A DNA stretch of 64,000 bases from Macrostomum lignano. Its lineage: Eukaryota. This document shows positions 684 through 20,671 of the stretch, piece after piece. The notes below the pieces were generated by a model that saw nothing but the letters and a program-made list of their open reading frames with translations, was not told the origin of the DNA and ran no database searches. Positions within the stretch are counted from its first letter, which is position 1. Each line of letters starts with the position of its first letter. Position numbers and translations under genes: made by a program. The stretch lies in NCBI GenBank assembly GCA_002269645.1, contig NIVC01000297.1, positions 248,001 to 312,000 on the forward strand. The letters run 5' to 3'.

Positions 684-1235
684 TTACCGCAATCTAATAC
701 GCAGATAGTTCATCGCGAAAGAACGCAAACGATTATAACAGCGCTTAAACAGATTCTCGGCGCCACCACCACTAATCATGCTCGCTAGAAAATCCTTCAA
801 ACCACCACCACGATGCAGTTTAAAGTATAAATAAAACAAAACCCATATACCACAGTGCAGACTTGTTGGTTCTTGAATAGCAAAACGCGAATATTCCCAA
901 TTTCCCCCTCCACAATTCCGTATAAACCACCGACGTATTAACTCACATGGATTTAACCCCAAGGAATCGAAATACTCTCCCTTCCTAGAGCCCCTCCTAC
1001 CCAACCTAAAACCCCCCACCCATAACAAAACCCAATGAGAACCCGGCAAATTTGAAGTATCGGTATTCACGATCAGAAAATAATGCCTTCTGTCTCTCGG
1101 GATTCGCGGGATACTACTCAACAAATCGACAGGAAAAATACCCAAAAAACAAACGTCTTTAAAACCGTTACATAGAATAATCACAACACGTTGCAAGAAC
1201 AAGTTCGTTACACCTTCGCCTCGCCTCATTTCCAA
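684..1235 (-). CDS. Adenain-like (C5) maturation cysteine protease
   Basis: VNTDTSNLPGSHWV (His), YFDSLG (Asp) and QEPTSLHCG (Gln/Cys) motifs. Confidence 0.9.
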   Translation of the reverse strand: MEMRRGEGVTNLFLQRVVIILCNGFKDVCFLGIFPVDLLSSIPRIPRDRRHYFLIVNTDTSNLPGSHWVLLWVGGFRLGRRGSRKGEYFDSLGLNPCELIRRWFIRNCGGGNWEYSRFAIQEPTSLHCGIWVLFYLYFKLHRGGGLKDFLASMISGGGAENLFKRCYNRLRSFAMNYLRIRLR

Positions 1236-2548
1236 GCGGTTCCTGGCACAACGTCCCGCAGTTCGGTAATCTGTAGTTGCTTGTCGAAAACACCACCGAA
1301 AATAACGTTATAGACCTCCGCTGTAGCCGTTCCAAAACGCATCTCCAGTCGGACATTCCCTTCCTTATACAATTGTACCGCCGGCGCAACTCCCCCGTCA
1401 GATCCTAACGAATACGCGAGTATCGTATACCCTCCGTTGTAGTCCGCCATCGAGAACCCCAAATCCCGTCCTTGTAAATACAAACCCAGTTGTTGACGCA
1501 GAGTTGTATACTCCTTTGCACAATCCCCTGTGAAGTCGAATTGACTAGGCCGTGTCGGTACCGCCTCACCATTTACGTAAACTCCAACGCTGATCAAATT
1601 CGCATGCACGAAATTGAACGGATTTGTCGCCAGACTTCCATTAAATGCAGTATTTCCAACGACTACCACCAGCAAAAGACGTGGCACTCCGCTCGGAAAC
1701 AGATTTTCGTGCGTATGGCTTAACGACCCTTGCGGTATAGTGAACGTACCCAATGATAAACTGCGATGAGGGTACAAGGCATTATGGGTCTTCAAACCAT
1801 GTGCATGGGCTCCAATCACACTGGCAGATGGCTGAACATACCGCAAACGAAGCTCCGCACTCTGAATCTCAACCTCGTAATCCTTTAACACTGCCTCACC
1901 AATCTGTGCGGCACTTAACACGAATTTGCTCTTTGCCGGTAGTAACTTTATCCGCAAAGGCGTCTTTGACAACAAATACCGTGGCTGACGAAATAGATCC
2001 AAAAACAAAGGCCCTGAAACCGTACAAGTTCTCCCACCCGCAATTAGTGCCTGTCGCTTCACTCGCCCAACGTTCGCGACGCCGGTGGCATTCATTTTTC
2101 CAGCAGTGTCCTTGTAAAATCCCCAGGCAGCCAATCCGCCGTCTTGTCCCAACCGACCATACTCCAAAAGCGTCAGAAGCATGGCCTTGTACGGATACAT
2201 GAAGCTCCCGCCTTCAACGACCGTATCTCCTATCCGCAATTGCACGTCTTCGAACAGCGTACTCACCACCATGTTATTCAGACAGACATAGTTTTTCGCA
2301 GCATCCACAGCCCCTCCACTCTCGTCTACTACTCGGATTCCAACAGTTAGAACTGTTTCTTGTAAGTCGACATACAAATCTCCAGCCGGTACAATCTCGA
2401 ACTCAATTGGCCCTCCTTGCGTAATCCCATGTTGAGGCTGTATATCCGTGTAGCGACTGTCCACAACACTGAATTGTACTGGTGGGCTGTCAAATAACGT
2501 CAACTCACTTTTCAATCCAGCGACGTCAGGCCCCAACAACTGATCCAT
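1226..2548 (-). CDS. Major capsid protein (double jelly-roll, Polinton PY/hexon-like)
   Basis: 440 aa intact ORF; N-terminus KSELTLFDSPPVQ...PIEFEI...YVDLQET and FNGSLATNPFNF are characteristic of Polinton MCPs. Confidence 0.85.
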   Translation of the reverse strand: MDQLLGPDVAGLKSELTLFDSPPVQFSVVDSRYTDIQPQHGITQGGPIEFEIVPAGDLYVDLQETVLTVGIRVVDESGGAVDAAKNYVCLNNMVVSTLFEDVQLRIGDTVVEGGSFMYPYKAMLLTLLEYGRLGQDGGLAAWGFYKDTAGKMNATGVANVGRVKRQALIAGGRTCTVSGPLFLDLFRQPRYLLSKTPLRIKLLPAKSKFVLSAAQIGEAVLKDYEVEIQSAELRLRYVQPSASVIGAHAHGLKTHNALYPHRSLSLGTFTIPQGSLSHTHENLFPSGVPRLLLVVVVGNTAFNGSLATNPFNFVHANLISVGVYVNGEAVPTRPSQFDFTGDCAKEYTTLRQQLGLYLQGRDLGFSMADYNGGYTILAYSLGSDGGVAPAVQLYKEGNVRLEMRFGTATAEVYNVIFGGVFDKQLQITELRDVVPGTAWK

Positions 2549-2941
2549 CTACTTGCCAAACAAACTGAATAACTTTTTAGTCGTGGCGCTCGGCTTTTTC
2601 TTTTTACGTATGCGTCTAACTCGCCGACCACGTCCAACCTGTTTTTTTACCGCAGGTGTCTTTCTGCTTATACCCTTTTTCCTGACTCGTCGTCGCTTAA
2701 CCACAACTGGTCCATCAGTAGTCGTCAATCTACGTTTCTTACCCATTCCAATCGTCTTCTTCAGGAAGCTTAAACCGCCCTCTACTAAATCCTTCCGAGC
2801 TCTACGTAGCACGGGATATATCACTCTCTCTGTTAAATTCGTCAAATATCCGTATCCCTCGTACACAGGTATCGAACTCGACCCACCACCCGTCCGCGGC
2901 TGTGTACTAGGTCCCGAATAGAATGCAAAAACCGGATCCAT
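2549..2941 (-). CDS. Basic virion core protein (adenovirus pVII-like)
   Basis: 130 aa, very Arg/Lys-rich C-terminal half, xxGG putative protease sites (RTGG, VEGG); its stop TAG directly abuts the MCP ATG. Confidence 0.6.
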   Translation of the reverse strand: MDPVFAFYSGPSTQPRTGGGSSSIPVYEGYGYLTNLTERVIYPVLRRARKDLVEGGLSFLKKTIGMGKKRRLTTTDGPVVVKRRRVRKKGISRKTPAVKKQVGRGRRVRRIRKKKKPSATTKKLFSLFGK

Positions 2942-2970
2942 GAATGCCGAGCGAAACTATACGTCAAAAT

Positions 2971-4112
2971 CTACTTAAAGTGCTTTGCTAATACCCGTGC
3001 TGTCTCTTTATCTAGATCTGATTCAGCCAACCACTGACCTCTCGAGTCGGGCATTCCCTCCCACTTGACAAAATATCGCCTGCCCTTCTTCCCCATACGC
3101 TCAACACGCTCGACCCGATCAATTTTAACAACCTCCGCCTCAGGTTCAGCCACTAGAAGCAGTTCACCTTGGTTGAATCGACCCTCCAACACTGTCGAAT
3201 CGTCCTCGGGTCTAACAGACCATAAGACGGTGGCTTCGTAGAATACACCCGATGAATTCGATACACCCTATTACTCCATGTCGTTGTGTAACCCTTCTCA
3301 AATTTTCCCTTTTGACGTGCAAGTCGTACCCAATCACCAACCTTAAAACGCGGAATAGGCCTCACATCGTCGCCATACAACTCCTCCCACACCATGCCCT
3401 GCAGATGGCCATCCGCACTCACATCAATGGGGCTACGACCATTTAAACTGCGGTGTGGAGAGTTATTCAACGCAAGCTCTAATTTTGGTAGAACATCAAA
3501 CCACCGGGCCAGATTTCGAGTCCGAAATAGTCGTAGTAATCGCTCCTTCACGGTGCGTATCAATCGCTCAGCCATGCTCGCTTTGTAGGTACTCTGACTT
3601 ACGAAAAATCGTACGCCCTCACGCTTTAACATCGACTGAGTTTCTCGCCCAAGAAACTCTCGACCAGCATCGCCTTGTAAGTACAGCGGTTTAAACCCCG
3701 TGCGGAATATCTCATACAATACACGGCTCACCTCACTTGGCTTCTTCGTCTTCAAAGCTCTCAAGCGAGCCAACCTAGTGAAACAGTCGACTAATACGAG
3801 GATGTACCTGTAACCACGGTTTTCGTCCTGATATTGCGGTAAGTCTGCCAAATCAATCTGCATTTGAAATTTTGCAACGGGCGGTAGTTGTATTTTCGGA
3901 GTTTTGAACTTCCGATTCGACTTCTGGAACAGATGTATCTCCTTCGTCCTACGCACCCACTTGTCAACAACAGCCTTGGCTTTTTTTTGCGTTAACTCCG
4001 GATACCTCCGCCTCAAAACTCGTATAAATTGCTTCTTATTGCCACTAAACGCAGTAGGGCGTTCCAAGTCGAAAAATGCCACGTCCAGAAACTTAAAAAA
4101 AATCGCTTCCAT
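2971..4112 (-). CDS. Retroviral-type (rve) integrase with C-terminal chromodomain; one frameshift near 3200
   Basis: QIDLADL / LQGDAGREF / MAERLIRTVKE DDE motifs in ORF 3153-4112; chromodomain YFVKWEGMPDSRGQWLAESDL in overlapping ORF 2971-3192. Confidence 0.92.
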
Positions 4113-4139
4113 CCTCCGTATTAGCGACTCTCCAAATTT

Positions 4140-4313
4140 TTATGATGCAGAACCCACATTAGTATTGCAACAGTTAAAACTTGCCTTTACCGTTACGTCT
4201 CCGTCAGGCTCCTCTGCGCGCAGTACGCGTTCCAATAAATTCGCAATGCAACCACCCTCCCCCAAAAAACAAATTCTAAAACGCTTGTACAACCACTGAA
4301 ACACATTCGCCAT
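4140..4313 (-). CDS. Small hypothetical Polinton protein (57 aa)
   Basis: Hand-translated MANVFQWLYKRFRICFLGEGGCIANLLERVLRAEEPDGDVTVKASFNCCNTNVGSAS; fills the gap between two packed genes on the same strand. Confidence 0.35.
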   Translation of the reverse strand: MANVFQWLYKRFRICFLGEGGCIANLLERVLRAEEPDGDVTVKASFNCCNTNVGSAS

Positions 4314-4361
4314 CCCCAGACTCGATATATTTCACGTAAAATACAATGCTTATACATTACG

Positions 4362-5027
4362 CTAGAGTCTCATAATCTTCCAAGGCTTGCAAGTCCCCAC
4401 CGCGCGACTCTGACTCGGAGTAGGTTCCATGGGTGTTCCTTCCTCCAGAACGTTTCGCATATGCCGCCCTAGCATCGACGGTGGAATTGATTCCCTGCGA
4501 AGCAGTGAGACGAAACGTTCCAGCTCTGCCGCCGGAGGCGATCTCCCTCGTTTCAATGGTTGGTCGCGAGTGACATACTCTACTAGCTCGTCAAAATCTC
4601 CTCCTCCAATCTCATTCGCAGCACCTGTCAGCCTTGCCTTCAGACGGTCGAAACGTGGTTGTACATTACGGGGGAGTCGCCTCCCCTTCTCGGTCTCACC
4701 CTCCGTCGGGCCATCATGACCAACGGATGAGCGAACCTCTGGCGGGGTCTCACCATTCTTATTGTACAGAGACCGCGTTTGTAGCAACCGACTCTCCAAA
4801 TCAGTTCTTTCCAACTGTGCGGTTGTAGGCTGCAGACTAGTCGATTCACCAATCTCCCGGTCAAGCCTATTCATCTCACCTTGCATTTCAACAATATTCT
4901 TACCCAAAGCGTCCACAGGTCCGTCCAATACTCCCGTCCTTCGCTCATCTTTCGACGTACATTCCAAATAAGCCTGCAACGGCAGCAAAACCATTCGCTG
5001 AAGAGTTCCTCCTCTATTGACTGGCAT
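4362..5027 (-). CDS. Hypothetical Polinton protein (221 aa)
   Basis: Intact ORF packed 1 nt after the upstream stop in the structural cassette; no motif recognised. Confidence 0.6.
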   Translation of the reverse strand: MPVNRGGTLQRMVLLPLQAYLECTSKDERRTGVLDGPVDALGKNIVEMQGEMNRLDREIGESTSLQPTTAQLERTDLESRLLQTRSLYNKNGETPPEVRSSVGHDGPTEGETEKGRRLPRNVQPRFDRLKARLTGAANEIGGGDFDELVEYVTRDQPLKRGRSPPAAELERFVSLLRRESIPPSMLGRHMRNVLEEGTPMEPTPSQSRAVGTCKPWKIMRL

Positions 5028-5028
5028 A

Positions 5029-5466
5029 TTACCTACGCCGTCCGGCCCGAATTGCTCGAACTAGATTTGCCGTCCCCGCAGCCGTACCGGCCAATCCCGA
5101 TGTAATCCCTAGAGCCGTGCCAATGGCTGGCAAAGCAGAAATTATCGGAGCAAGAAACGGCAGGAAACCACCACGCTGTACCAAAATTTCCTTCCTGGCT
5201 CTAGTTGATTTTTTCTCCTTCAACAATTCTTGTATCGGTTTCCGATAGCGTTCTAAACGTTTCTTGTCACACGACTTTAACGGCACGCGTCCTTTTACGA
5301 TATTCAAAAGAAACTCAACCAGGCAACGCACCTCGCCCGGACTTAAACTTCGCAGAAATCGCTTGCGCTGGTCCAATCCCCGAAGCCTCGCGACAACTTG
5401 CAATAGGAAGGCACACTGGGACAATGATCGCGCGCTTTGTACGCTCTTTTCTGTCAGCCCGGTCAT
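5029..5466 (-). CDS. Conserved small Polinton virion protein with QRGG-FL site followed by a hydrophobic/amphipathic segment
   Basis: ILVQRGGFLPFLAPIISALPAIGTALG; this QxGGFL architecture is common in animal Polintons. Confidence 0.7.
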   Translation of the reverse strand: MTGLTEKSVQSARSLSQCAFLLQVVARLRGLDQRKRFLRSLSPGEVRCLVEFLLNIVKGRVPLKSCDKKRLERYRKPIQELLKEKKSTRARKEILVQRGGFLPFLAPIISALPAIGTALGITSGLAGTAAGTANLVRAIRAGRRR

Positions 5467-5510
5467 TGTCTATCATGCCTTCTACTGATTCCGACTGTAC
5501 TTGCTTATAA

Positions 5511-6467
5511 TCAATCGTCTCGTACCCTGAAGTGCAGCACAGCAATCACATGGCTTCCATCAGGGAAATTCAAATCTTGCCCCCGTTGGTCGGCCAGACG
5601 AATGGAGATCTCATTAATGTAGCTCCGATTTGTCCGCAAGTAATATGGCGTCTGCAAAGCATTTCCGTCTCGTCGAAATATTCCGTTCTTTTCCTGGCGA
5701 AACTCAACCACGCGAAGTAGCGGAACCTGACGACTTCCAACCATTTGATATTCAACAATGTCGCTATAGCAGTACATGTAAACACTCCGCAGTATCGCTT
5801 CGGGTATTCTATCCAAATAGACCTTCGTCAGACCCCACGCACGATTTTTCCTCCAATACTCAACCACCTCCTTTAACGTATCCCCGGCAGGCCGTATTAC
5901 CTGCGTACTCTTCATCCAGACGGCGAAACCAGGTTCCAAGACAGCACGAAAATCGTACCAATTCGAATCTAATATACCTGCCTCGTCCATTGCATTCGTT
6001 ATGTTCGTCCAGGATTCACCCGCCGCATCCGCGGGTTGGGTGCGTCCGTCGTGAGCTGTCAAACCCCACGTACTGAAACCAAAGCATGTCAAAAAACTCC
6101 TTGGCAGTTCAATGCCCATACGTCGGCTGCCGGAATTTCGCAAATACCAAACATATGCTTTAGTAGCCGGCGTCCACGACAAGTGTACCTCCAAATCATC
6201 GGCCTGCCAGACCTTACCCAAGAAGACTTCATCTGTTTTCTCGATAATTTTCTCGATGTTGCAATAATATATCACCTTCACCTCTTCTCGAAGTTCCGCC
6301 GAGGAAGTTTCCGCCGGCGGGCTGTTACATAGCAAATCCACCAAAGCCACTTCATACTTCCCAGCCGGCGCTAGATTCAATGGTGTAGTTAGCCGCACCC
6401 GAAACTCGTGCGCAGAATTGGTCGGATAACTACGATCGTTTGACGGAATAAACACAAAGAAACTCAT
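5511..6467 (-). CDS. Minor capsid protein (penton, single jelly-roll)
   Basis: N-terminal FxxxxPSN...PTNSAHEFRVRLTTPLNL...YEVAL and C-terminal YSDIVEYQMVG...LLRVV...ISIRLADQRG...VLHFR motifs. Confidence 0.8.
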   Translation of the reverse strand: MSFFVFIPSNDRSYPTNSAHEFRVRLTTPLNLAPAGKYEVALVDLLCNSPPAETSSAELREEVKVIYYCNIEKIIEKTDEVFLGKVWQADDLEVHLSWTPATKAYVWYLRNSGSRRMGIELPRSFLTCFGFSTWGLTAHDGRTQPADAAGESWTNITNAMDEAGILDSNWYDFRAVLEPGFAVWMKSTQVIRPAGDTLKEVVEYWRKNRAWGLTKVYLDRIPEAILRSVYMYCYSDIVEYQMVGSRQVPLLRVVEFRQEKNGIFRRDGNALQTPYYLRTNRSYINEISIRLADQRGQDLNFPDGSHVIAVLHFRVRDD

Positions 6468-6497
6468 AATCTCACCCCATAAGCTGTAGCCGCTTCC

Positions 6498-7219
6498 TCA
6501 AAACTTGCTTATAATATCCTCCTCCTTGATAGTCTCCGGACGCATATAAACAACCTGGTGAGTGTCACTCGGAAAGACATTCGTCCGTATGCGTATCATA
6601 TCCGGCGTGTCCTGTCGTAAGTCTATGAAGAGATAGCTGAAGGCCTTGTCACCCGTCGCGTCGTCATAAGCCTGCACCAGAAATCTACTAGCTCGGGGTA
6701 CATCTGCCGACCCAAATGTTCAACGGCGCTACGATCCCTAACATTTCGGCTTAAACAGATATAACTCGTCGATAAACTTCTTTTTCTTGCCTCAGGATCC
6801 GCAGGGTCAAACAAATTTTGGCACAAATAAAGACAAGTCAATGGCGTATGATGAGCCAATTTGGTGAATACAGCGGTAAAAGCGCGTTGCTTTGCAACTT
6901 CACCCTGCAAATCATCAACAACGACTAAATCGTGCGGCTTGAATCTAGCCAACAACTGATCGGGGAATCCCTGTACGAAGTGACATTCGCCACTTCCACC
7001 CAATGTCCAACATTCTCGAACTCGTTTTTCCTCAGACGAATGTAACTCTGTACCGTGACACCAAATTAGACGCCTTGGTACTACTCGAAACAGACCCAAG
7101 CGCTCCCTTACCAGTCGAAGCACCCATTCAGTCTTTCCCGAATTCGAAGGACCTGCGACGATAAACGTCGAGTCATGAGCAAATCGCAAGTCGAATGTAC
7201 GCCTGTCCATTCTAGGCAC
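6498..7219 (-). CDS. FtsK/A32-like genome-packaging ATPase; one frameshift near 6690
   Basis: Walker A GPSNSGKT, Walker B VVVDDL, HH...QNLF motif; the shifted frame continues AYDDATGDKAFSYLFIDLRQDTPDMIRIRTNVF to a stop at 6498-6500. Confidence 0.9.
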
Positions 7220-7633
7220 CCAAACGCTGTTTTACGTTCATAACACGGGATACCAGTTTTGCGGCCAAACGTTCCCCCCACTTAGTTGTAGGATCCGCAG
7301 CAATCTCTCGAGCTCCTGCTTCGAGTTGTTGATCGGCCTTTGAACGCTCTGCCACGTCCGAGTGCTTCTCGTATGCCAGGTCGTGTAAGAGACACAATTT
7401 ATCGAGCCGATTCTTCCCAGTATCGCCCCGCGCTAAACGTTCTCTCAATCTGGTCCCGGGCCGCAGAATTGGTAACCCCCCGGCAAATGAAGCTCCCCTG
7501 GGAGATGATTTATTACCCAATTAACAATACCAAACCCCGTCTGACCTCGACGACGAGATTTCTTAGCTCGAGTCGACTTTGCTGCTGTCGAACGCACTCG
7601 CTTCTTCTTCTTCTGTCGGCCTTGTGTTCCCAT
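7212..7633 (-). CDS. Parvovirus VP1u-type phospholipase A2 (PLA2X); one frameshift near 7455
   Basis: ELHLPGGYQFCGPG (Ca-binding loop) then TRLRERLARGDTGKNRLDKLCLLHDLAY (HD catalytic dyad); basic N-terminus. Confidence 0.85.
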
Positions 7634-7778
7634 CCACTTAATTGTACCAAAAGAACCAATTGCATTTGCTTATACACACAGTGGTTAAATCCACGAGCAG
7701 TATATTGTATTAATAATCAAAGTGACAAGCCGCCACCAATTCCCACCACCGACCGACGGGCTCCGGGCGTGACCAGCA

Positions 7779-8394
7779 TCACATGTTAGTGCTGCCCATG
7801 CCACCCGTCTCGCGAACCGCCACCGGCTCCGGTTGTCGGTGCCACACCCCCGGCAGCTGGCCCTCGCGAGCTCGACCGACTTCTACCGGGGGCGTGACGC
7901 AGCGCTCCAGAATCAATTGGGCCACGCTGGTGGCACACGACAGATGAACTTTCTCATCTGACGTGTTGTGCAGGATCACGCGGAGTTCCCCGGTATAGTC
8001 CGGGTCAACCACGCCACCCTGCACATTTAGGCCTCGGTTGGCCCAACTGGACCGGCTCGCTATCCGACCATAGGTGCCGGCGGCAGCATCACCCGGAGGC
8101 CGGTGCGAATGATGGCCGTGTCAAAGGCCTCCACAGTGCGGTCTTCGCACGTGGCTAGGTCGTAGCCCACCGACCCGGCCGTAGCTCGCGAGGCATCACT
8201 GCCCCGGCATCCGTGAGCACTACGCGCAGCGGGACCGTCGAGCAAGAGTCGGAGCTCATAGTGGCTGCGGGATCATAGTTCATCTTATGCTTAGGAGGTT
8301 CTTCGTCCTCTAAAATAAGTCTAGTACTACCCGCGTAATCCTCGTCCCAATCAAAAAAACTAAGCCTAGTACTAATCCCCTGCACTGCCATCAT
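7779..8394 (-). CDS. dut: dUTPase; two frameshifts (~8175, ~8075)
   Basis: Motifs across the shifted frames: SVGYDL, GRIASRSS, GGVVDPDYTGE, VAQLI, RETGGMGST. Confidence 0.85.
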
Positions 8395-8519
8395 AGGCCT
8401 AGAAAAACGAAGAGAAAGAAGGAAAGGCGGATTCTTGCATATACATTCGATAATTGCGCGCATATATTGTGTGCAGAAAAAGCATAAACAGACAGAAAAC
8501 AGAGAGCGGAGAGAACAAG

Positions 8520-11500
8520 TCAAGTCAACCGCCAATGACCAAATGGGAGGGATGAGTAGGGATCGAGCCAGGCTCGCTTCGTGTCGAAGAAGCTAAGCGC
8601 CTGCTTGCGCTGCTCAAGAAGATAAATCTTCTGTCGTCGCGAAGTAATCGTCCGCATCGTTACATGCTCCAAAACTCGATCCTTCAACACACTCAAAAAT
8701 ACATTGTGCTTCATACCTCTTACAATCGACTTCGACACGCCCTTGCAACGCACAATCTGACAGAGGCTTTCCTTTGCATACACCATTGAATAGTTTTTCG
8801 GGCGTAGAAATGCAAACTCCAACAGTGTACAACCGGAAACTTCATCTTTCCAGGCCATTAACTTCCCTTTATACTTTGTTGTATAAAGCGGATGAGAAGG
8901 TGGATAATTACTAGTGTCTAACACACCGCACTCCACCAAGTCTTTAAACAATGTCTCCTGAGGACTCGTCTCCGGGTCGGCCATAACCAATGCCAGGATC
9001 AAACTATCCGTATCTCCACCAAGCACGCGGCAGAAGCAAGCGACCTATGGCATTGAATCCTTGAATAGAAAAACTCGTAGACAAATGTTTTCGCAAGGTC
9101 CAGAATAGCGCTACCAATCAGAATTGGCTTGTTTAGCAATACTCGACGAGGAGTCAAACTCACGCCCGCTAGACGATCTGTATACAGAATCACGTCCATA
9201 AACTCCTCTTTAGCGACATACGTTTCCAACTTCTCGGCAGTAGTACACATGCGATAGCTGAGTCGGTCTCGAACTCGCTGCAGAAACTTGCCGTACACAG
9301 CATTGTTCAATAGTTTAAAGAAATCTCGATCGAAATCGCTAGTCGCCTCAGACCGCCGACGAATATTATGTTCAATATATTCCTGTAGAATAGGACCTTC
9401 TACGAATTCGAGAACACGATTAACCCGCGTCACGCGCATGCCTAACTCGAGGTAAAGACGCAATGCTCGATGATGTACAATGTACCCTGTTTTATGCGTA
9501 ACAGAGCCAATTAGTTTCCTTGTCGGAGAAGTGAATCGTTTTACGTCCTCGTATACCTCCGCATTCCTCTTCCTGGGATCAAGCTGGCGTTGCAGACAAA
9601 CCCAATCCTGCTTCATATGCTCGGTTAAATAGGCACTATCAATTCTTTCATGGCCAATAGCCAGAGGTAGATCGGCAGTTGAGTCGTGCAAAAACTTTGG
9701 GTAGTAAAGATCGACATTCAATAACGCCCCTCGTCCATTCGAGCAATAGCTAGACAACCAAGCCAAAAACTTGCTCGACTTGTTCGGATTTTCCAACTCA
9801 GCTGCCTCATCATCAACTGATAGATTTTCAATCACTTCACGGGGCAACCAACGATAGGCCTTATACGGCAGCGCCTGCACCATACAACTGGCATAAAGAG
9901 AATTAGCATCAAGGTAGGCCAAGTGAGTGCCATACGGTGCATTCCGCCGTAGTTCTCTTAAATGTCGTCGTCGTCATCCAGCTGCCGACGCATTCTTCTA
10001 CCATTGGATTATTTGCCGTAGTAAGATGGCGAGTGCCGAAACTGAACCCACCTCGAATCGAAGCTTCAACCTCGGAGTACATACGAGCGTCTGTAAACAA
10101 CTCGATCGGCTTCTTCACCTTCAACAGACACGCAGCCAGACTATACATTGGCGATCCGAGAAAATGACACACATCCAAACCGTATTCTCGAATTGCAGTG
10201 CGACGAAAACTCTCAAATACGTCGCATAACAGTAGTACATCCAACAGTAAATACGCAGTCAGATAGTCACGCAAATTGGCACAATCAAACTCTTGCCAAC
10301 TCTGCTGAGCGCGTGTGTACTCCTCCTTAGAACACTCTTGCCGGGTCATTGCGTCGTAAAACAAATCTCGCGATGGCAGTTCAGTCACACTGTCCAACTT
10401 CTCTTCAGAGTCCAAGTAACAATACGGAAACACTCCCTTCTGCTGCAGAGTAGACAGTTGGAGTTTAGGATAAACATTCAGCAAATCTCGACAGTGTACC
10501 AATTGTTCCTGCGTCAAACGGTTTGCCAGACTAGCTAGACTTGTCGACAAGTACGCAAAACGTGTCCTTGAAGCAGATTCAAACCNNNNNNNNNNNNNNN
10601 NNNNNNNNNNNNNNNNNNNNNNNNNNNNNNNNNNNNNNNNNNNNNNNNNNNNNNNNNNNNNNNNNNNNNNNNNNNNNNNNNNNNNNNNNNNNNNNNNNNN
10701 GCCAGACTAGCTAGACTTGTCGACAAGTACGCAAACGTGTCCTTGAAGCAGATTTCAAACCAAACAAAATTCTTCTTCTTCTGCTTTTGTTGCTGCGGCC
10801 GTTGACTGCCAACCAGCAGCGGTACCTTGAACTTTAATGAAAACGTCTTAAACCGTTCCCTAGACTCGGGAAGAACGTGCAGTTGAACGTCGTCTTCTCC
10901 ACTAAACACATTGTACACCTCACGAACAATTATTTTACCGTCATATCCTCGAAGATTGTGCAGGTAGACGATAATTCGATAGCGCTGCAGGGCAAGTTTT
11001 CGATTGCACGACATGCAAGCCATTCCACGTGGAAGACCACTCAAATGACAATGATCCCAGACTTGAGACTCGTCAGCGGAAAACTCGCGACGACAGACGT
11101 AGCATCGATCTGCGCTAGGACGCTGACCTAGATACTTTCTAAGCATTGGTCTATAAGTCATCTTGCTAGTCGCATTAGTTACTTCGAATGCAAGCTCGCG
11201 CAGAGCCAAGAGAAACCTGCCAATACAATCTGTTGTGCCAGGCGTAGAATAAAACAACTTGCATGGAGTATTGTATCTGCTCAACAAATCCTCCCTCGTT
11301 ACACTATCCAAATCCGGATCGACAACCAAACGAAAGGCCACACAAACGGGCACGTGAATTTGTAAAACACGGCTGTTAGCCGTAGGCACTGGCAGGCCCT
11401 TGACGAGGCCCCTCGATGCCTTTTCAACAGGTACAAGTAGACTCTCAATATCAGCATAAACCAAATACAGCGGCGGCAGTCGAGTCTCGTAGGCTGAAAA

Positions 11501-13142
11501 AGACAAAAGCTTTGCCCTCCTCTGGTAAAACCTCCTCCGTGACTGGCTTTGGCGTTCGAATGAAGCCGCCGCCGCCGCCGCCGCCTGGTTGCTCCTCCGT
11601 CGTCTGGCCACACACGTGTTCTTTCAAGATATAATCCCAAGACGTGGTGTGAATAAAGCTCGCCAGACATTCAGGACAATAGCGCCGGCGTTTAGCACGA
11701 GAACTCAACAGCCTATCCAGATTTAGCACCGCCATGTAGTGTCCATACTTGAATTCTGCGTAAGGTGGTATGAACAGACAATTGACTGGCGCAAGGTCAC
11801 CAGTGGAACGACGAAAATTAAAAAACAGCACGGCAGTATTCGTGGCATGACTCCAGACAAACACACGCATCAGTCTAATTCGAGGGTTCAGCCGGCAAAA
11901 CTTTCTGTAGCTCCCAATTGAGTGACGAGTCACTCCGGCGCGCGTAAATCGAAAGCTTTTCAGCCAAGGCCTGTAAGACGCCTTTCGCCTTTTACGGGCT
12001 TGCCCTTCGACCTGTGAGGAAAAGACGCTCGACACGACAGCATACATAAAACAATCATGCTGATCTGCTCGGTGCGGGCGTAGAAACAAAACCGCTCCCG
12101 GCATACGACCAACAGCCAGTGGAACGCGGAATGGAACGGAACGGGTCGGAGCGGATTCTGTTGGACCGCCGCCCGCCTGCGCGCCCGCCGCCGCCGCCGC
12201 CGCCACGCCCGCCGCCACCACCACCGCCGCCCCGCCACCCGCTCCCCACACGTCCTGCTGCTGTTGCCGACGACTGCTAGTGTTCGACTGTAGTAGTAGA
12301 TATTTTCGGCGGAATATGCACAGCATAACGTCGACCTTGACAACGCCGAGGAACTTCCAGTTACTACCTCGGGACTGAAAGTTGTCTAATTTAGCTACCA
12401 GATCGTTTGTTGCCTCGCTGTACCATTGGTTGAAAACGTCCTCAGAGAGAAGAAGTACACGGCGGCCGGCGGCTGGAGCATTCGCATCGAAGGAGACCAT
12501 AACGACTTTGGAATTGAAAAAGGGCGCGATTACTTCTACCTCTTCGTTGTGGGGGGATTCACCAACAGCCGTGTCATTGGCGGGGGGATAACGAGTACGA
12601 TACATTTTTACATTAAGATGTATACATGTACGGAGTAAACAGTCCGCAGATCCGAGAGAGTTAAAAAGACGAAAAAGTGGAACTTGCAGTTGTGGAAGTA
12701 ACTCGCTGGGTGGTTCGGTCTCGCCATCGTCCTCGTCCAGCAGAGGCGTGAACGTCAGAAAGTTCGCCCGACCTCGGTGTGCGGACTCGGTATGTTGTAC
12801 CGACCAGCCTGGTGGAGTGTCCTCTTCGATTAGCCGACGCACTGGTTCTCGAAGTAAAAGTTGGTCTGGTTGATAGCACGAGCCATTGTGCGAGTGCCCA
12901 TGGAGGGCGGCTTGACTGTTGAATCTCTGCCGGCACACAGGGCATCTGATTTGTTTCGTCGTCGTCGTCGACGGCTGGAATGGTGTTGGCGATTGTTGGC
13001 GACGGGGTGGTTGTGATAATCGCCTAAATAGTTTGCTCGGTGGCAAAAATAAGGAAGGAATGCACAGCCTTAAGTTTGGTGGACAGTCCGAAAATGTCCT
13101 CCGCCGCGTGGTTAAACTGTATTTTACTTTGCAGAGATACAA
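8520..13142 (-). CDS. polB: Protein-primed family B DNA polymerase (pPolB) with N-terminal terminal-protein region; split by several frameshifts and an N gap
   Basis: In order: FQSRGSNW, GHYMAVLNLDRLL, VYADIESLL (Exo I), DHCHLSG..RG.AC..CN zinc finger, HNLRGYD (Exo II), KGVFPY, YLLLDVLLLCDVFE (Exo III), IRGG, YLDANSLY (A), KLLNNAVYGK (B), GDTDS (C), PKNY, KGV. True start not resolved; the track start is TTG. Confidence 0.93.
10586..10700. other. Assembly gap (115 N) with a 61-bp sequence duplicated on both sides
   Basis: 10525-10585 and 10701-10761 are the same sequence apart from homopolymer lengths (aaaa/aaa, tt/ttt). Confidence 0.95.
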
Positions 13143-13435
13143 TTATGTAGACAATTTGAATATTTAGGAATGAACAGCAGGCTAGTAAGTAGTAGGTCGT
13201 TGATGGTGGTTGAAAGAATAGAATCGTATAACTTAGTCAATGGTAGTGTTTTTAGGGGTCTGAATCAGTTCGAATGGATCATCATGATAAACAAAAATCG
13301 TTGGGTACGCATGGGAATTTTACCTTCAGGTAGTAATAGTGGTAGGTGGTGTTTTTTCAACTTGGTAGGGGCTCGGTTGAATTTAGGTGTTTATCACTAG
13401 AGCAGAAAATCATTGTTGTTAATATCAAGTGCATG

Positions 13436-14818
13436 TCAGAGCTCACGACGAATGATGCCGCCAACAAGATGGGCTAGATCGGTCGTAGATGTATCCGATC
13501 TGATTAGAATTTCGTGTACGTTCGAGTAGTCCTGGTAGTGGCGTGTAAACGCCTCGTCTAGCGACCGTAGATAGTCCAGGGAGATGCCAGTCTCCTCACC
13601 GCTGCGTCCGCGCTGCGCGATGCGTTGAATGGCCAACTCCGGGTCAATGCGCAGGTAAATAAGCGTCGTGTTCGCGCCGGTAAAGGGTACCCCAGTCGCT
13701 TCGAGGACGTCTAGTTGGCGCTGAGCAATCGCCCATTCGGTGTCAGACAGCGAGCCTTGACGGTGTAGTACGTCTTGGAATGCTCGAGCCGACCCGAGGC
13801 AGCGGTCGAGGATAACCACCTTGTTGTTGGATTGTTGGTTAACCTCATTCCGGACCTGGGTGGTAACACAAGATTGGCAAAAGTAGCTATACCGTGCGTG
13901 TCTTTCGACATTGGTTGTACATGTAGTAGGAGCTATACGAAAGGAATTACTAGATACTATAGTACCACTTACTTTGCTGTCTCTGTCGAGCAAGTCGTGG
14001 GAGACGTGCTGTTGGAATGCGACGGCCGGAAGCTCGCCTCGATAGAATGACTGAAGCAGATTTACCGAGTCCGGGAGGAGCGGGTGTCGCGCGTACTGGT
14101 GAACAGGCTCGGGACCGAAGACGGCTTTGTCGGCCCAACCCTCGAGGCGGGAGGTGAGAGCCAGTTCTCGAAGCAACGTCGACTTCCCGGCACCGATTAC
14201 GCCCTCCAGGAGAAAAATGCGAGACTGGCTCGTCATATTGGCTAGAATTGGAACAAATTCTGGTTTCGGAGCGGCTTCCTGACACAATTGTTTAACAATG
14301 TTGATCATTTCTAAAATCTGGCTAGTAGTCTTTGCACCTATTATAACGATCTTAAGGGAATGAAAAATATTGCACACCGTCCTATTGAGTGGAGCAGTAC
14401 TACGGAGGGTGACGGCTTGTGGGAATATCTCCGCGTCGTAATACAGCCGAGCTGTGCGAAAAGGCCCGATAAAGTTTTTCAAGGTCGAAAATTTGAGTCC
14501 AGGATAGTGGAGCAGACCAACGGTTGTAGAGCTGATTATACGAATCGATGTTTTGATTAGTTTAATTACTTTAAGGTGTATGAAATTCAGGGCACGTAGA
14601 AGTTGGACTCGGGATCTACAGCCATAAAGCGTGAGTAGTCCGCCGGGGTAGAACTGACATGAAAATTGGGGCAGTCCGATACGAAGCATACTTGGCTTGG
14701 CGGAGTATAATTTGGAGGGGATTCCCGCCTGGCCTAGACGTTTTTTTAGCCTATTTAAATCTAACTTTTCTCCTGGAGGGGTACTCGTTCTGGCTTGCAC
14801 TATTAGTAGGACCAATCT
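13436..14818 (-). CDS. TBP-like domain in frame with a deoxynucleoside/thymidylate kinase
   Basis: N-terminal ~175 aa shows both TBP repeats (KLDL..., QFYPGGLLTLYGCRS; YDAEIFPQ..., NIFHSLKIVIIGAKT). C-terminal part has P-loop LEGVIGAGKST, EPV, ILDRCLGS, YLRIDPELAIQRIAQRGRSGE and DYLRSL of the dNK family. Confidence 0.85.
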   Translation of the reverse strand, partial: RLVLLIVQARTSTPPGEKLDLNRLKKRLGQAGIPSKLYSAKPSMLRIGLPQFSCQFYPGGLLTLYGCRSRVQLLRALNFIHLKVIKLIKTSIRIISSTTVGLLHYPGLKFSTLKNFIGPFRTARLYYDAEIFPQAVTLRSTAPLNRTVCNIFHSLKIVIIGAKTTSQILEMINIVKQLCQEAAPKPEFVPILANMTSQSRIFLLEGVIGAGKSTLLRELALTSRLEGWADKAVFGPEPVHQYARHPLLPDSVNLLQSFYRGELPAVAFQQHVSHDLLDRDSKVSGTIVSSNSFRIAPTTCTTNVERHARYSYFCQSCVTTQVRNEVNQQSNNKVVILDRCLGSARAFQDVLHRQGSLSDTEWAIAQRQLDVLEATGVPFTGANTTLIYLRIDPELAIQRIAQRGRSGEETGISLDYLRSLDEAFTRHYQDYSNVHEILIRSDTSTTDLAHLVGGIIRREL

Positions 14819-14956
14819 CTGAAAAGAATAAATACGAGAAAAAATTCAGTATAACGGTTAAGATTTTATATATTTCTGGGTGATGCGTTTCCGTTTACGG
14901 AGAATGGTAGTTAGAGTTATAGGTATAGCTTCCCGCCACCAAGTGAACGCTAACGG

Positions 14957-16047
14957 TCACTGTGCGAAGACTTCATCATCTTCGCTGTCCATGGGCTCCG
15001 TCGAGGCCCCCGAGTCCACGTCCCCTAGTGCTGGGTTGGAGGCTGCAGCTTTACCCGCTTTGGGGACAGTATTGGTAGCACCGCTTACAAGATCTTTGAC
15101 GGGAGTCACCGTGATCCAGTCTTCAGCTGCTGCTGCTGTTGTTGCTGCTCCAGTCGTCTTGGTGGGGCGTTTGGCGGGGCTGCGACGAGTTGGGCCTTGT
15201 CGTCGTTTTCGTCCGCTAACTGGTTTCACTAGCGTCGTCGTAGTTGTTGACTCTTCTTCCTCAGTTGCGGCGGTGGCGGCGATTGGAGTCGACGTAGTTG
15301 GGATGTGAAATCGCAAAGCTTGGGCTAGCATCGGCAGGTGTTTCGGGTCGTCGTCGACCAGTGTCAGCGAGCGAAGGGCGAGGCCGAGGCGCCATGTCTT
15401 GCTTTCCTTCTGACGATAAAGACTTGTGAGCTGAACGGAGAGATGGTAAAGACCGCTAAGTCCCCTCAGCTCGCTTGTGTCAACTTCACGTGGGTGTTGA
15501 TTAGGCAGTGCTCGAAAGGTGAAACATGGTAGTGTAGGTTTTATGGCAATCCACTGGGCAAAGCCCAGGTCGCCTTCCTCGGTGGCGCGGGAGATGCGAA
15601 GCAGCGGCATCGGATCGCCCATTTGCTTTAGTTTGATAGCGATGCCTCTTTCGACTTGTCTAGCGAGAGCAAGGGGAATGAAAAGCAGTAAGAATTCATG
15701 GTCTAGTGAGTATGCACATGTAACAAGGATGGCGAATTCTTCAACTTACTTGATGCATTGTAGGAATTTGCTGCAAAAGGCCGATGATGACAGTCCGATG
15801 GCCACCGCCTCACGGTCTCCGGCTAAAAACTCTCCGGCATCCTGTATTTGGACACCACGAAGAATCTCGACTGGGGTCGTGGTTTGAATCACTAGTGGGG
15901 ACCTCCTGTCGACTTTGGGGGCGTCCACGTTACGCTACGGAAGGTGCAGCTTGCTGTAGGAGCGTTGGGTTCGCCTAGGTGGAGATTACCAACGTCGGCT
16001 TGGATAGCACCCGGTTGGAATACGGATTCGGCAGCGAAACCAGCCAT
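14957..16047 (-). CDS. Putative ssDNA-binding protein (T7 gp2.5/NCLDV-SSB-like); intron 15660-15749 and one frameshift near 15920
   Basis: Kozak aacaccATGG at 16047, TATAAAA at ~16138-16144; GTAAGT...pyrimidine tract-CTAG 90-nt intron removes an in-frame TAA and joins QCIK to QVERG; PLVIQT motif, beta-rich core, acidic tail DSEDDEVFAQ. The gene model is better supported than the product call. Confidence 0.55.
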
Positions 16048-16742
16048 GGTGTTGATCTTGCCTTGCTCGGAACGCGTGTTTGAAGTGCCTTCTATTTGGA
16101 GTCTTAATGAAGATTTTATTTCGTTTAGGGGTACCTATTTTATAGAGTTGTTTTTTAAGGGGGGCGTGGGATCGTTGAAGATTGTAGTTGGTCTTCTGGC
16201 TGGTGAATTCCCAGGGACTTTGGACATTTTGTTAAAGAGTTTAGGGTTGGTGAGATGCGATGCAAATATACGTGCGTTAAGAGATAATTTTGGCATTATA
16301 GTAGTGCGTGCAAATCGGTGAATTGATTTGACATGCTATTTAAGTTCACTAATTTGGTGTTCACTAGTGGAATAGGAAATTGATCTCACTCGATGCGTTC
16401 GGGTTATAGTAGGCTAGGGTCGGTGAATTGACTGCATGCATTTCATGGGCGTAAATTGCGTGCTCATTGCTGGATTGATAAAAATTTGGAAATGCCTGCA
16501 CCCTAGTTTGGGTCACGGGTGACGTTTTCCCATAGAGGTCGGTTTGTAGAAAGATACCGAAAGGGGGGTTTTTACTGGCTTCGGCATTGAGTGGTTGGTT
16601 GACAGCGCGGCGCTATCTATATGCTATATGCCGATAACGGAAATTGTGCAATCCCCCGCGTGGGTTGAGTTTCATATGAAGGGGAGATCTAGGTCATTGA
16701 GTTAGAGAGGAGACTTGGAACTGTTCGAACGATAGATTGCGA

Positions 16743-18481
16743 ATGACAATGGCCGAGGCTCAGGACGGATCGCGGGAAGAGTATTGGAAGGCACAGGAGG
16801 GATACTTTGAAGAATTGGAACGCAAATTCGCTTTCGTGGACTACGGTAGCGATCGACTCCGACGAGTGTCGCCCTTGAGTAGACCGTCTGGTAAGTATAG
16901 TTTTTTATGACTGCCACTCCTCTTGTATGGCACCGTATTTTGATAGGGCATCATATACCGACTTCAGTAGACGGGCAGCAAGACCTCCGTCCGGTCGCGG
17001 TAGTTCCGCCTAGTGTGCGTGGCCGCGAGGATCCCTATGACGGGGAAATTACTATAGGGAGGAATACGTTCCCACCAAGGACAGAGGTATGTAATATGCA
17101 TTCTGAGTTCGATTGCTTTGTGGTAGTATAACTTACTATGCCTTCATCTACTGGTAGGATTACTTCAACGCAAGGACGGCAGCTTTGGAGGAGCTACGTG
17201 AGGGGACCCGAGGTTCGCTATCGTGACGCGGGTTACGACGTAAGATTGATTTTTAAGTTAGTAGTGCCTGAGCTTGTACTTGACGAGTTCATTTTGCCTT
17301 TTTTAGCAACTATGCATGAGTGACCGAGTAGTTTTGCAGCACCAGTGGGCGACGGCAGTTTGTACGCGAACGCATGAACTGGTGCCGGAGATGGTGGCTC
17401 GGGGAAGGGAGGTACGAGACAATATTCGTATGCTTTTCTTATCACATATTGCATTAATAAATAAAGAATTTCCATTCTCATTTTAGGAGTTTTTAGCCAT
17501 GGTGAGTGGAGATGTGCTTTTTGGTGTGGTATAATTCACTCGTCCGTATGAAAATAAATTTACTTGTCTGTTCTTTATTCTTGAATCGTAGATTCGCGGA
17601 CGTGGTCGTCGGACTCGAAACGAGGTATGGATATTGTTATTTTAATTGAGTGTGATCCTAGTTCAATATTGTAGCCCAGTTGTATTTTCTGCTGTTGCAT
17701 ATTCCAGGCTGCGTGTGTTTCGTCCAGCCCCACACAGCTTACAATGGTCAGTAGTCGCTTGGCATTGATTAAACATTTAAGATATAAAGGCTGGAATCTT
17801 ATTTGACATTTCAGGCGAATTGCGCGATCGGAGAAGGGCGAGCTCCCGGACCACCGCAGCCATGTGTCCCGGTTAGTGATACATCGAAAACCATGCTCTT
17901 TATTTTGGCGGTATGTACATAAGTAGCTCGGTTTGGGAGGTGCTCTTCACGTGCCGGTTTAAGATGGAGTTACGAGGTTTTATGGTAGTAGAATTCGTGT
18001 TATTTAGTGTGAGACGGGACCGTTAATGCATGAACCAGTTCTACTTTATGCTGCCACGCATTCAAGACTGCATGGCATTGATTAAAACTTGAGGGTGTAA
18101 AACAGTTGAAATCTTATTTTTTTAAATTGCAGACAAATTTCGTGTTCGGACGGGGGCGGACTCCTGGACCGCCGCAACCTTCCACGGTTGGTGTTACGTA
18201 GAAGAATATGCTCTTCTTTGTAGGGTGTTCACAGTCATATCGGGTGGGGGGGGGCAGGTTGGTAGTGGTTTAGGGTGAAATATGCAAGTCTATGGTGGTA
18301 GAGTTTGTGTTACAACAAAGAGTTATTTATACAATCAAATTTCAGATTCCGAAGCCGCCATCCGGAAGTGGATTCCCTGGTGGTGGTAGGGTTAGTAAAT
18401 TTTATATTGATTGCAGCGTAGTAAATTGACCTGGTAAATGTATGTCATCTTCTTTGGTTTCAGGATGCGGACCTGTCGTAG
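16743..18481 (+). CDS. 11-exon gene of unknown function inside the Polinton (~244 aa)
   Basis: Exons 16743-16890, 16947-17086, 17158-17239, 17307-17411, 17487-17501, 17592-17624, 17708-17746, 17815-17871, 18133-18186, 18346-18390, 18464-18481. All ten introns are GT-AG and the frame is maintained if one extra G is removed from the G-run near 17203. Confidence 0.72.
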
Positions 18482-19448
18482 GCATTCGGGACTCGGCGTG
18501 TGGGTTGGTTGACTCCGTCGCCGCCGTCGGCTTGTTTATGTGGACTGTAGGGGACTTGTATTTGTAAATGTTTCGTATGCGACTTTTATTCAGTGAAGGC
18601 TTGGACATATGTGTCTATTTATTCTTTTGGATTCGCTCTGTGTGCAGTATCGTACATGTAAATACAGTGTGGCGTAGATCCAAGGCCTTCGTTCGATGTA
18701 AGGGCTTGCCAGCGGGGTGTCTGTCTTGTTGTGTCATCGGTGGAAATATAGCGTTGTTAAAGGATAGGTTTGGATCTTGTTTGTCTTAGGGCTAAAGAGA
18801 GGGGTGATAAACTCGGGGTTTGAGTTTTCGGTGGTGTGGTTAGTTCTAGGGCTTCTGGGGTGGGGGGTCTGTATTATGGGGTCTGGTTTATCTCAAGTGG
18901 GGGGTGAAGCATGGGGGTGGGAGTCGAATCACCCCGGGGGAATCTTAACGCGGCAATATTTTTTAAATCGCATGTAATTTGCTTTAGTTCTTTAAATTCA
19001 ACTTTTATTCAATTTTATTTTATTTACTTGTTAAAAACTTTTAATACACAAATATACCGGTTCGTCAATGAATGTATTAAAACTTGTAGTGCTAAAATAC
19101 ACGGATTCGATGTTGGTTGAAGTAGCTACTGAAGCCGGCGTTCAATCGAGAGGGCGGATAAGGTAAACAAAAGTGCAAGATATGCATATGTAGATGCCGC
19201 GGAGACGGATGAAAAGTAACAGAAAATATGCGAAAAAGTATAAGTACGAATATGAGTGGTTGGTATCGAGGTTTTGAGTTCTATGGGTAAAATATTGAAG
19301 CCTAGTGACGGTCCCCCTGGTTCTAATCTGTACTACATAAAAATGGAAAATACTATCCTGATCCTAAAATTGTAGACGTTTCGAGAAGTTTAACAATACA
19401 GCATAATAATGTTTGTTAGCAGGTAGGCGAGTACACTTAATGGCGGAT

Positions 19449-20030
19449 TCAGTCAATCAACACGGCCGTGGACGATAGTGGAAAGGTCGGCATGGACGGC
19501 GAGCGTGGTGTTGAGGTCCATGTTGGGGCAGCACGGCGGTTTGGGTTCGGTCCGGGTGAAGGTGTTTCGGTGCTGACTCTGCAAATAAGAGCGGAATGCT
19601 TCGGTAGTTGGGGGCCATGTTTCGGATAATGATTAGAATTTACTTACGTCTGAGTGGCTTGAGAATACTCTTGGCTACGGAAGTCATTCGGACGGCGGGA
19701 CTCGGGAGAGCGGATGCGTTTGTAGCAGTGGTGAAGCAAAGCGAGCACCAGGAACAGAAAAATAATTAGAAAAACGACCTTCAGGGCCACCAGTTGCGCA
19801 CTTGCTAGGTTGATTAGTTTGTTGACGCTTTCTCCGATTGCAGTAAACATTTGGGTATTATTGTATGCCTGGACGGCTATACGATTTCGGAGCTCTTCTT
19901 GGGAGTAATGGGAATTCTCGGATAATTGTCTGACAACTGCCGAAAGTTGTCTGGTAGTTTCCGCGTTGTTTTGGGTGGCTTGGGCCTGTTTAATAAACAC
20001 AGCCAGTATTTTTTGTAGTCGGTTCGCCAT
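19449..20030 (-). CDS. Two-exon single-pass membrane protein (~170 aa) inside the Polinton
   Basis: Exon 20030-19648, intron 19647-19579 (GTAAGT...TTTGCAG), exon 19578-19449 in frame; TM segment VALKVVFLIIFLFLVLALL followed by HHCYKRIR; AATAAA downstream near 19000-19025. Confidence 0.65.
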
Positions 20031-20607
20031 TAAGATGGTTATACGAGACTCGGTGAACTAATAAACTTGCCAGACTATTCACTCGAGAATCCGACTTGAC
20101 GCCGTTTTTAGCGCTTGCGTCTAGAAGTTTGTATCTGTTCAAACCCTCAAGTCGTGGGGAGGGGTGGGGGTGGGGGGTACAAGTTGTGCGCGGGTGGTTG
20201 ATGAGAATCGGATTTTAATCGATTAATGTGGCGGGGTGGGTGTACATTTCGCTGTGTGCGCCCTAGCGTTTGGGGTAAGGTCTTTTCTCGGAAATGTAGC
20301 ACTTATGGTCCGGCGGGAACGGAGTATGGATCGTAGAGTTGGTATAGAATGCAAGTGGTTTATTTACGGAGCAAGTGGTTATTATAATCTTCGCAATATC
20401 TATTACTGGAAATGGCGCAGGCCGCGCTCGTGAGTAGTGTTGCCTAAGGCCGAGTAAAGCGTATACCTTATCGTGCGTTTAACACGGTTTCGGAATTTGA
20501 AGTGCTTGGTGAATAGTCTGTTGGTTTCCACCTACTCGGGTGCGACTGCGAGTATAAGATAAGTAGGGGTACGATTTGTAGGCGGCTCGCTTGAGCGGGT
20601 TAGGACG

Positions 20608-20671
20608 GGTGGGGACTGTATTCATTTTTACATGTAAAAATGAGGGGTGCGTGTAATTTTATAATACTACT
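20608..20671 (-). repeat. Right terminal inverted repeat of the Polinton
   Basis: Ends in ...ataatactact; inverted copy of 366-429 with 3 mismatches. Confidence 0.9.

Follow-up and report, generated by a model that had tools for sequence, protein, structure and literature searches.

Mixed cis- and trans-splicing in the early region of a flatworm Polinton/Maverick element

Early genes of a Polinton/Maverick element are processed by mixed cis- and trans-splicing. A TBP-like domain is joined in cis to an upstream gene, and dUTPase mRNA carrying the host spliced leader (SL) was found in one of four runs. Taken as a whole, we consider it probable that these events belong to one scheme, in which the acceptor-like sites of dNK and PolB are likely used in the same way and the region is probably one early unit. 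The first-pass annotation had proposed that the early genes are resolved by cis-splicing or SL trans-splicing; both processes were encountered, at 14818 and at 8265 respectively, whereas its idea that the SL AUG starts the TBP was not upheld.

Element, host and RNA data

The window, a 64,000-nt stretch of DNA, contains an element (Table 1) whose inverted-repeat arms are 71 nt each, 93% complementary and 20.2 kb apart, within the 15-25 kb range of the class. It encodes a protein-primed family B DNA polymerase (Pfam DNA_pol_B_2, E 5.1e-12), a retroviral-type integrase (rve, E 3.2e-7; at 31 bits slightly below the cut-off of 32.6) adjoined by a chromo domain, and candidates for a packaging ATPase (Pox_A32, a weak match at E 0.035) and a protease (a weak match to S273R, E 0.056). 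The region 1226-2548, without a match in the domain library, is a candidate capsid gene. The splice-bearing early genes belong to this Polinton/Maverick of a Macrostomum lignano-type host. The host genome encodes an SL ending in AUG; the SL gene equals the published 35-mer and is followed by GTAAG in 30 genomic places. A flatworm host with an AUG-ended SL, as assumed in the first-pass annotation, was thus borne out.

The window copy carries frameshifts and an N gap at 10585-10700, and its 6-bp flanks differ between the two ends. Three flanking 6-mers reappear at the opposite end of element copies on other contigs, so the family does have target-site duplications and different copies were probably mis-joined during assembly; in the window copy, two near-identical insertions have probably been scaffolded together. 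Divergent families of the element in the genome, with 32-40% protein identity between them, are designated A-F; their tree has weak support except for C+D.

RNA evidence comes from one examination of assembled contigs in 4 of 24 listed runs, whose RNA status rests on joints, poly(A) and SL in place of an RNA label on the record. It covers 24 of 62 loose contig ends and 15 of 24 joints. Assembly can lose rare SL tips or forms, contigs spanning several genes do not show one single transcript, and reads carry no assignment to the window copy (copies are 95-99.8% alike). A spliced antisense transcript, apparently non-coding, runs over 16.9-18.5 kb.

Table 1. Features of the element, in window coordinates
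Feature	Position	Strand	Remarks
Polinton/Maverick element	366..20671	-	termini AGTAGT...ACTACT; inverted repeats 71 nt; ~20.3 kb
Exon 1 of upstream gene	15750..16047	-	ATG at 16047; TATAAA at 16144
Intron 1 of upstream gene	15660..15749	-	90 nt, GT-AG; joint 15659/15750 in 3 of 4 runs
Exon 2 of upstream gene	15089..15659	-	ends ...V-K-D-L at alternative donor
Alternative intron	14819..15088	-	270 nt, GTAAGC...TTTTCAG, phase 0; joint 14818/15089
TBP-like exon	14279..14818	-	two-repeat TBP fold; first strand starts at residue 2
Acceptor-like site before dNK ATG (14236)	14242..14263	-	phase 1; candidate
dNK	13436..14236	-	Pfam dNK, E 6.7e-24
dNK intron	13972-13856	-	117 nt, in-frame GT-AG; joint 13853/13971 in 3 of 4 runs
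Acceptor-like TTCCAG at PolB start	12975..12995	-	phase 0; candidate; absent from first-pass annotation
PolB region, protein-primed	8520..12974	-	Pfam DNA_pol_B_2; frameshifts and N gap in window copy
Polypyrimidine-YAG, strongest of element	8399..8421	-	ATG at 8394; candidate acceptor
SL trans-splice acceptor	8265..8266	-	ccgcAG/ccactATG; SL 3' end as loose contig end, run X1
dUTPase	7779..8259	-	Pfam dUTPase, E 3.1e-16; frameshift in window copy
	
The TBP-like domain as an alternative last exon

Exon 1 of the gene upstream of the TBP-like domain carries a frameshift in the window copy and is open in two near copies, and donor and acceptor of intron 1 lie at the same place in the other families inspected. 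Unless the intron 14819..15088 is removed, the upstream frame continues into an acidic tail and stops at 14957. The upstream protein had no match in Pfam, NCBIfam or a PDB sequence search, and exon 2 alone gave an AlphaFold model of pLDDT 42 without a fold match by Foldseek. The name SSB for this gene is a label of the first-pass annotation with no domain or fold match behind it; the acidic tail would fit a single-stranded DNA-binding protein. P0001 has the same K-D-L donor but is left out of the evidence because it resembles the output of automatic gene prediction; an Atlas look-up of it gave matches to dNK only.

Three orphan acceptors had been described on the minus strand, and all three YAG sites were found in place (AG at 14820-14819, 14243-14242 and 8400-8399). 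By a crude pyrimidine score devised for this analysis, 8399 and 14819 rank first and second among the 456 YAG on the minus strand of the element, and 14242 ranks 59th. Likewise confirmed were the ATG-less TBP frame, with an in-frame TGA 9 codons ahead of R-L-V-L and its first Met at residue 44, and phase 0 of the acceptor at 14819. This acceptor is not an orphan, however, as the donor at 15088 is in use: the joint 14818/15089 (GT..AG, minus strand) was obtained in runs X1 and X10, two of the four and from two studies. Contigs of X3 and X4 pass through 14819 unspliced. In DNA, all six near copies covering the sites retain the intron, as is the case for a spliceosomal cis-intron.

Pfam TBP matched the exon in 6 of 7 members, and its model (pLDDT 90.5) adopts the two-repeat saddle fold, with Foldseek TM scores of 0.73-0.75 to TBP. 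According to the model, translation from Met44 would lead to loss of strand 2-11 and helix 21-30. Relatives of the exon outside this genome were found neither among proteins of similar length in the collection nor among metagenome contigs, which is weak evidence.

Of 20 divergent loci, 19 have a YAG immediately 5' of TBP codon 1, as do all loci listed in another comparison; the acceptor TAG of family B is an in-frame stop. All six families have a phase-0 GTRAG donor at K-x-L/V-S, although only 33 of the 153 V-S dipeptides at these loci are written GTRAG. Two copies of family F possess an in-frame ATG 11 codons ahead of the acceptor, and without the splice the whole TBP is untranslatable in five of the six families. 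Since donor and acceptor are conserved in 6/6 divergent families, the TBP-like domain represents an alternative last exon that is joined in cis to a donor within the upstream gene, and an SL AUG is unneeded.

This result bears on two other explanations. The first-pass annotation had the SL trans-spliced at 14818, its AUG starting a stand-alone TBP (M-R-L-V-L). Phase 0 and the AUG end of the host SL fit this proposal, and a minor SL form might have been dropped by the assembly together with other rare SL tips; yet the cis join is the only one seen at 14818, in both studies, its partner donor is conserved throughout the families, and in the available part of the published account trans-splicing predominates where an upstream donor is lacking, whereas a donor is present here. 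The proposal is therefore improbable, and as the main route to a TBP start the SL AUG is rejected on the cis joint and the conserved donor. A sequencing error masking a genomic ATG was also rejected: the near copies C362 and C1431 lack the TGA, but a stop closes their frame 13 codons upstream with no in-frame ATG, and the corrected start codon for which the first-pass annotation had allowed did not appear in either. Secondly, splicing could be host processing of decayed read-through copies, with no role for the element, which would agree with the broken window copy, the antisense transcript and the interpretation of introns in integrated viral elements elsewhere as domestication (PMC10675990, in part). 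This explanation is largely refuted by the preservation of donor, acceptor and phase across families of such low protein identity, and also has against it that most of these families need the splice for a whole TBP; we regard it as highly implausible.

The host spliced leader at the dUTPase gene

An SL junction on the element was detected in run X1, one of the four, at 8265 just 5' of the dUTPase ATG and after an AG; the SL sequence was checked against the genomic SL gene. In the same run, poly(A) was found at 7665. The first-pass annotation had expected a join of the SL or of an upstream exon at 8398 instead. There, and at 14818, 14241 and 12974, no SL was present among the loose ends covered (24/62), contigs being prone to lose rare forms. 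Three of the four runs have contigs that continue through 8399, and the ATG at 8394 opens an in-frame dUTPase extension of 45 codons. A genomic SL-dUTPase retrocopy as origin of the SL contig had no support, as none of 61 SL 21-mers lay within 20 kb of 98 dUTPase matches (compared by eye).

At 8265, the sole observed site, the SL AUG opens a short reading frame (M-P-L-stop) that is out of register with dUTPase and overlaps its ATG, so an initiator role is not demonstrated there. In all seven element families inspected, a YAG is located 5-24 nt 5' of the dUTPase ATG and is never phase 0; its mixed phases 1 and 2 are more suited to a leader before the gene's own ATG than to a coding fusion. TATAAG precedes dUTPase in families E and F, and the gene may therefore have its own promoter, outside any polycistron.

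dNK and the start of PolB

dNK is in frame with TBP only in the family of the window element. Contigs continue through 14242 in three runs, while the contig of the fourth, X10, stops 30 nt past the site at 14212, where seven copies show no sequence variant. This invariant contig end, which hints weakly at a join other than the SL at 14241, would favor a purely adenovirus-like arrangement, in which cis-splicing from upstream donors reaches all downstream genes and the SL contig arises as a by-product. Cis-splicing is indeed well supported and the SL was seen only once, and the ATG of adenovirus pTP is supplied by an upstream exon of 9 nt (PMC2397415, table). On the other hand, the SL contig survived assembly at 8265, contig depth is 73 downstream of the SL site and 24 upstream (a weak indication, as contig depth), and the dUTPase YAG is of the host trans-acceptor type in 7/7 families with its phases mixed. 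An exclusively cis-spliced early region is thus unlikely, and mixed cis- and trans-splicing is the reading retained here.

In the PolB frame, no in-frame ATG occurs between the acceptor-like site at 12975 and the preceding stop, and contigs pass through the site in three of four runs. Families A, C, D and E (4/6) have a phase-0 CAG at the PolB start (FQ/P-R-A-R-C), whereas families B and F (2/6) have an ATG (M-P-R-A-Q-C); B and F are not paired in the trees, which are weakly supported except for C+D. An in-frame ATG lies upstream of the acceptor in families D and E (in E, in one of two copies checked). With a phase-0 CAG replacing the ATG, the idea of the SL as initiator may apply to the polymerase. 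Judged from the sequence, the PolB start codon is likely also gained through splicing. That this Polinton PolB without its own start codon takes its initiator Met from the host SL AUG is a tentative proposal, which we put forward as possible. If true, replication of a virus-like element would depend on host trans-splicing, and the element would also have a TBP-like late-promoter factor made by alternative splicing.

Model and implications

Donor choice at 15088 would yield two products: the upstream protein with its acidic tail, and a protein in which its first ~290 residues are fused to the TBP-like domain (and dNK in the window family). SL addition would free downstream genes owning an ATG, namely dUTPase and probably dNK, and PolB, for which families A and C offer no usable ATG, would gain one at 12975 from the SL or from a cis exon. 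The genes may form a single polycistronic early unit. Speculatively, the conserved TATAAGC motif before late genes may be where the TBP-like product acts, a candidate target that is not enriched window-wide (10 seen and 6.1 expected; 12/100 shuffles).

Polinton annotation usually presents a compact series of simple ORFs. Here core early genes are unreadable without splicing, so they will be missed or cut short wherever annotation relies on ORFs. The element combines host SL machinery with adenovirus-like alternative cis-splicing, a combination relevant to how Polinton-like ancestors gave rise to adenovirus-style transcript complexity and to what binds these elements to their host lineage. Because the host is a transgenic laboratory model, the PolB start, the TBP fusion and the late promoter are accessible to RT-PCR and through existing reads. 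The literature searched (subscription papers were outside its scope) held no description of Polinton transcripts with SL trans-splicing or with conserved introns, and a term search of the accessible parts of PMC6880638, PMC11071296, 10.1101/2023.08.22.554363 and 10.1101/2024.01.15.575659 returned no relevant passage.

Comparison with known systems

TBP-like proteins of large DNA viruses (BFVD matches) share the two-repeat TBP fold at 10-22% identity; here, in contrast, a startless exon is spliced to an upstream protein, together with dNK in the window family. We know of no trans-splicing in adenoviruses, and the present element differs from their E2 unit in the coding region of ~290 residues fused to a TBP-like domain and in the host SL. 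What follows refers to the parts of the cited papers that were available. As in the E2 unit (DBP, pTP, Pol; PMC7851563, PMC2397415), the replication genes are co-oriented and reached by alternative splicing. With the Polintons/Mavericks described as adintoviruses (PMC8502044), the element shares pPolB, rve integrase, PLA2-like and pX-like genes, terminal inverted repeats and, as a candidate, the packaging ATPase. A TBP-like gene was already named there in a genome-map legend (Starrett et al., PMC8502044); 'splic' is absent from the main text of that paper, whose supplementary maps could show TBP-bearing or spliced elements. Different from those Polintons are the conserved spliceosomal introns in early genes, the alternative last exon and the SL-bearing mRNA. 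SL trans-splicing and operons of M. lignano (PMC8629364) feature the identical 35-nt SL, YTNCAG-type acceptors and the SL at a downstream gene, but the recipient here is a virus-like element. Finally, for Schistosoma the SL AUG is reported to provide the initiator codon (cited in PMC9851317), whereas it is out of frame at the one site observed here.

Element copies, families and transcript evidence

Domain matches to PolB, rve integrase, chromo, dNK, dUTPase, TBP, PLA2-like and pX-like proteins were obtained within the element, together with a weak match for the protease and a gene that we presume to encode the capsid. Frameshifts and an N gap interrupt the window copy; seven more near copies in the genome are 95-99.8% alike. 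The 6-mers flanking the two ends of the window copy differ, and either one is found again on another contig, at the opposite end of the copy there, which suggests that the assembly fused two near-identical insertions, possibly at the N gap. A protein search of the genome gave 73 TBP-like matches, which were grouped by eye into six families, A (including the window copy) to F, with 32-40% identity to A. Family B (L043-L064) has at least 30 near-identical copies, 12 of the 21 compared being identical over 1 kb; they lack dNK and most of PolB and keep the TBP splice sites. It is a recently amplified, internally deleted family.

Transcript evidence consisted of contigs from four runs of four studies, whose RNA status was guessed, out of 24 listed runs, and covered 24 of 62 loose ends and 15 of 24 joints. 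Assembled contigs drop rare transcript forms, and reads are not assignable to one single element copy.

Features of the element and its transcripts (window positions)
Feature	Position	Strand	Observation
Polinton/Maverick element	366-20671	minus	71-nt terminal inverted repeats, gene content
Small ORF near early terminus	20030-19450	minus	hydrophobic stretch
69-nt intron at last codon of small ORF	19647-19579		spliced in 4/4 runs
Antisense transcript	16900-18500	plus	five GT-AG introns (2-3 of 4 runs apiece)
Early-gene intron	15749-15660		used in 3/4 runs
Join ahead of TBP-like exon	15089 to 14818	minus	270-nt GT-AG intron removed, phase 0
Early-gene intron	13972-13856		used in 3/4 runs
SL join ahead of dUTPase	8265		run X1
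Poly(A)	7665		run X1
TATAAGC	7674, 6513, 5509, 4354, 2672	minus	late half

No exon of the antisense transcript holds a long ORF, and it is perhaps a regulatory or small-RNA precursor.

The TBP-like domain is an alternative last exon

The first-pass annotation had proposed that acceptors before TBP, dNK and dUTPase are used in cis or by the host spliced leader (SL). Its description of the sites holds: all three YAGs are present, and the TBP frame has an in-frame TGA and no Met before residue 44. By our own crude score, 8399 ranked first, 14819 second and 14242 59th among YAG sites of the element (n=456). The proposal was borne out in part: splicing was seen at the TBP acceptor, in cis (two of four runs, the contigs of the other two passing through unspliced), and at dUTPase, where the SL was joined in one of four runs at a site other than the proposed 8399.

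The TBP-like exon encodes a real two-repeat TBP fold whose first strand starts as early as residue 2; translation from Met44 would therefore truncate the fold. The intron ahead of it is present in the DNA of 6/6 near copies, a YAG directly precedes TBP codon 1 at 19 of 20 divergent loci, and the upstream ORF has a GTRAG donor at K-x-L|V-S in 6/6 families (background, 33 of 153 V-S pairs); since C and D are close kin, these amount to five independent cases. No in-frame ATG precedes the acceptor in five of the six families, F having one in two copies. The used cis join, the conserved donor and acceptor and the missing ATG together show that the upstream gene uses the TBP-like domain as its alternative last exon. 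The spliced product would fuse the first ~290 residues of the upstream protein to TBP and, in family A only, extend into dNK; unspliced at the 15088 donor, the upstream gene ends in an acidic tail. Its identity as SSB was not confirmed.

Before the dNK ATG an acceptor-like YAG of mixed phase occurs in families A, C, D, E and F, and contigs pass through it in three of four runs. The contig of the fourth (X10) stops at 14212, where seven copies hold no variant; this hints at a join into 14241 from an exon not ending in G, i.e. not the SL.

The early region may be transcribed as a single precursor, a reading to be taken with caution because TATAAG lies ahead of dUTPase in families E and F. Four of the five TATAAGC motifs stand directly ahead of late genes, and families B-F have the motif at corresponding intergenic positions; it may serve as a late promoter and be bound by the TBP-like protein. 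Across the whole window it is not enriched.

The spliced leader at dUTPase and its possible use at PolB

That the host is a flatworm, on which SL use depends, holds. The 3'-terminal 21 nt of the published M. lignano SL have 61 genome matches (control, 0), 30 of them directly followed by a GTAAG donor; in one gene that was inspected the 35-mer is complete and ends in ATG, and the element matches a UniRef entry labelled M. lignano. The other 31 matches lack GTAAG; three of six inspected (L085-L090) have common downstream sequence, suggestive of a repeat or retrocopy carrying the SL head.

The SL join lies five bases 5' of the dUTPase ATG, and none of the 98 dUTPase matches has a genomic SL match within 20 kb. 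A YAG stands 5-24 bases before this ATG in 7/7 inspected element families. Because its phase is always 1 or 2, the SL AUG does not serve as the dUTPase start codon. Positions 14241-14232 (dNK) and 8264-8255 (dUTPase) share AG|CCA-x-T-ATGA; at both, an SL AUG would open a frame of three codons, with a stop codon overlapping the ATG of the gene. Site 8399 is strongly acceptor-like, yet is read through in three of four runs; splicing there could yield a dUTPase longer by 45 residues.

A further acceptor-like site, beyond those of the first-pass annotation, lies at the PolB N-terminus. There a phase-0 TTCCAG in families A, C, D and E takes the place of the ATG of B and F; in C, D and E the two align codon by codon. 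Three small trees, with weak support, never pair B and F. Between site and previous stop no in-frame ATG was found in 6/6 A and 2/2 C copies, whose next Met lies 107-113 codons downstream, beyond a conserved zinc-finger-like motif; in D (2/2 copies) and E (1/2) an in-frame ATG does lie upstream. With an SL AUG, the protein would begin with the same M-P-x-x-x-C. In Schistosoma, translation is known to start at the SL AUG (cited in PMC9851317). Alternatively, the start may come from a cis exon, for which the adenovirus pTP is a precedent (PMC2397415), or from a fusion with the 15088 donor; both would be in frame. Contigs pass through the site in three of four runs, and initiation of PolB by the SL AUG is put forward tentatively, at somewhat below even chances.

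Comparison with known systems

Our literature search turned up no description of introns in Polinton transcripts or of their use of an SL; an adintovirus paper (PMC8502044) already lists a TBP-like gene. As far as the excerpts go, cis-splicing of the early genes resembles the adenovirus E2 unit (PMC7851563, PMC2397415), and SL use by the element resembles a host operon gene (PMC8629364).
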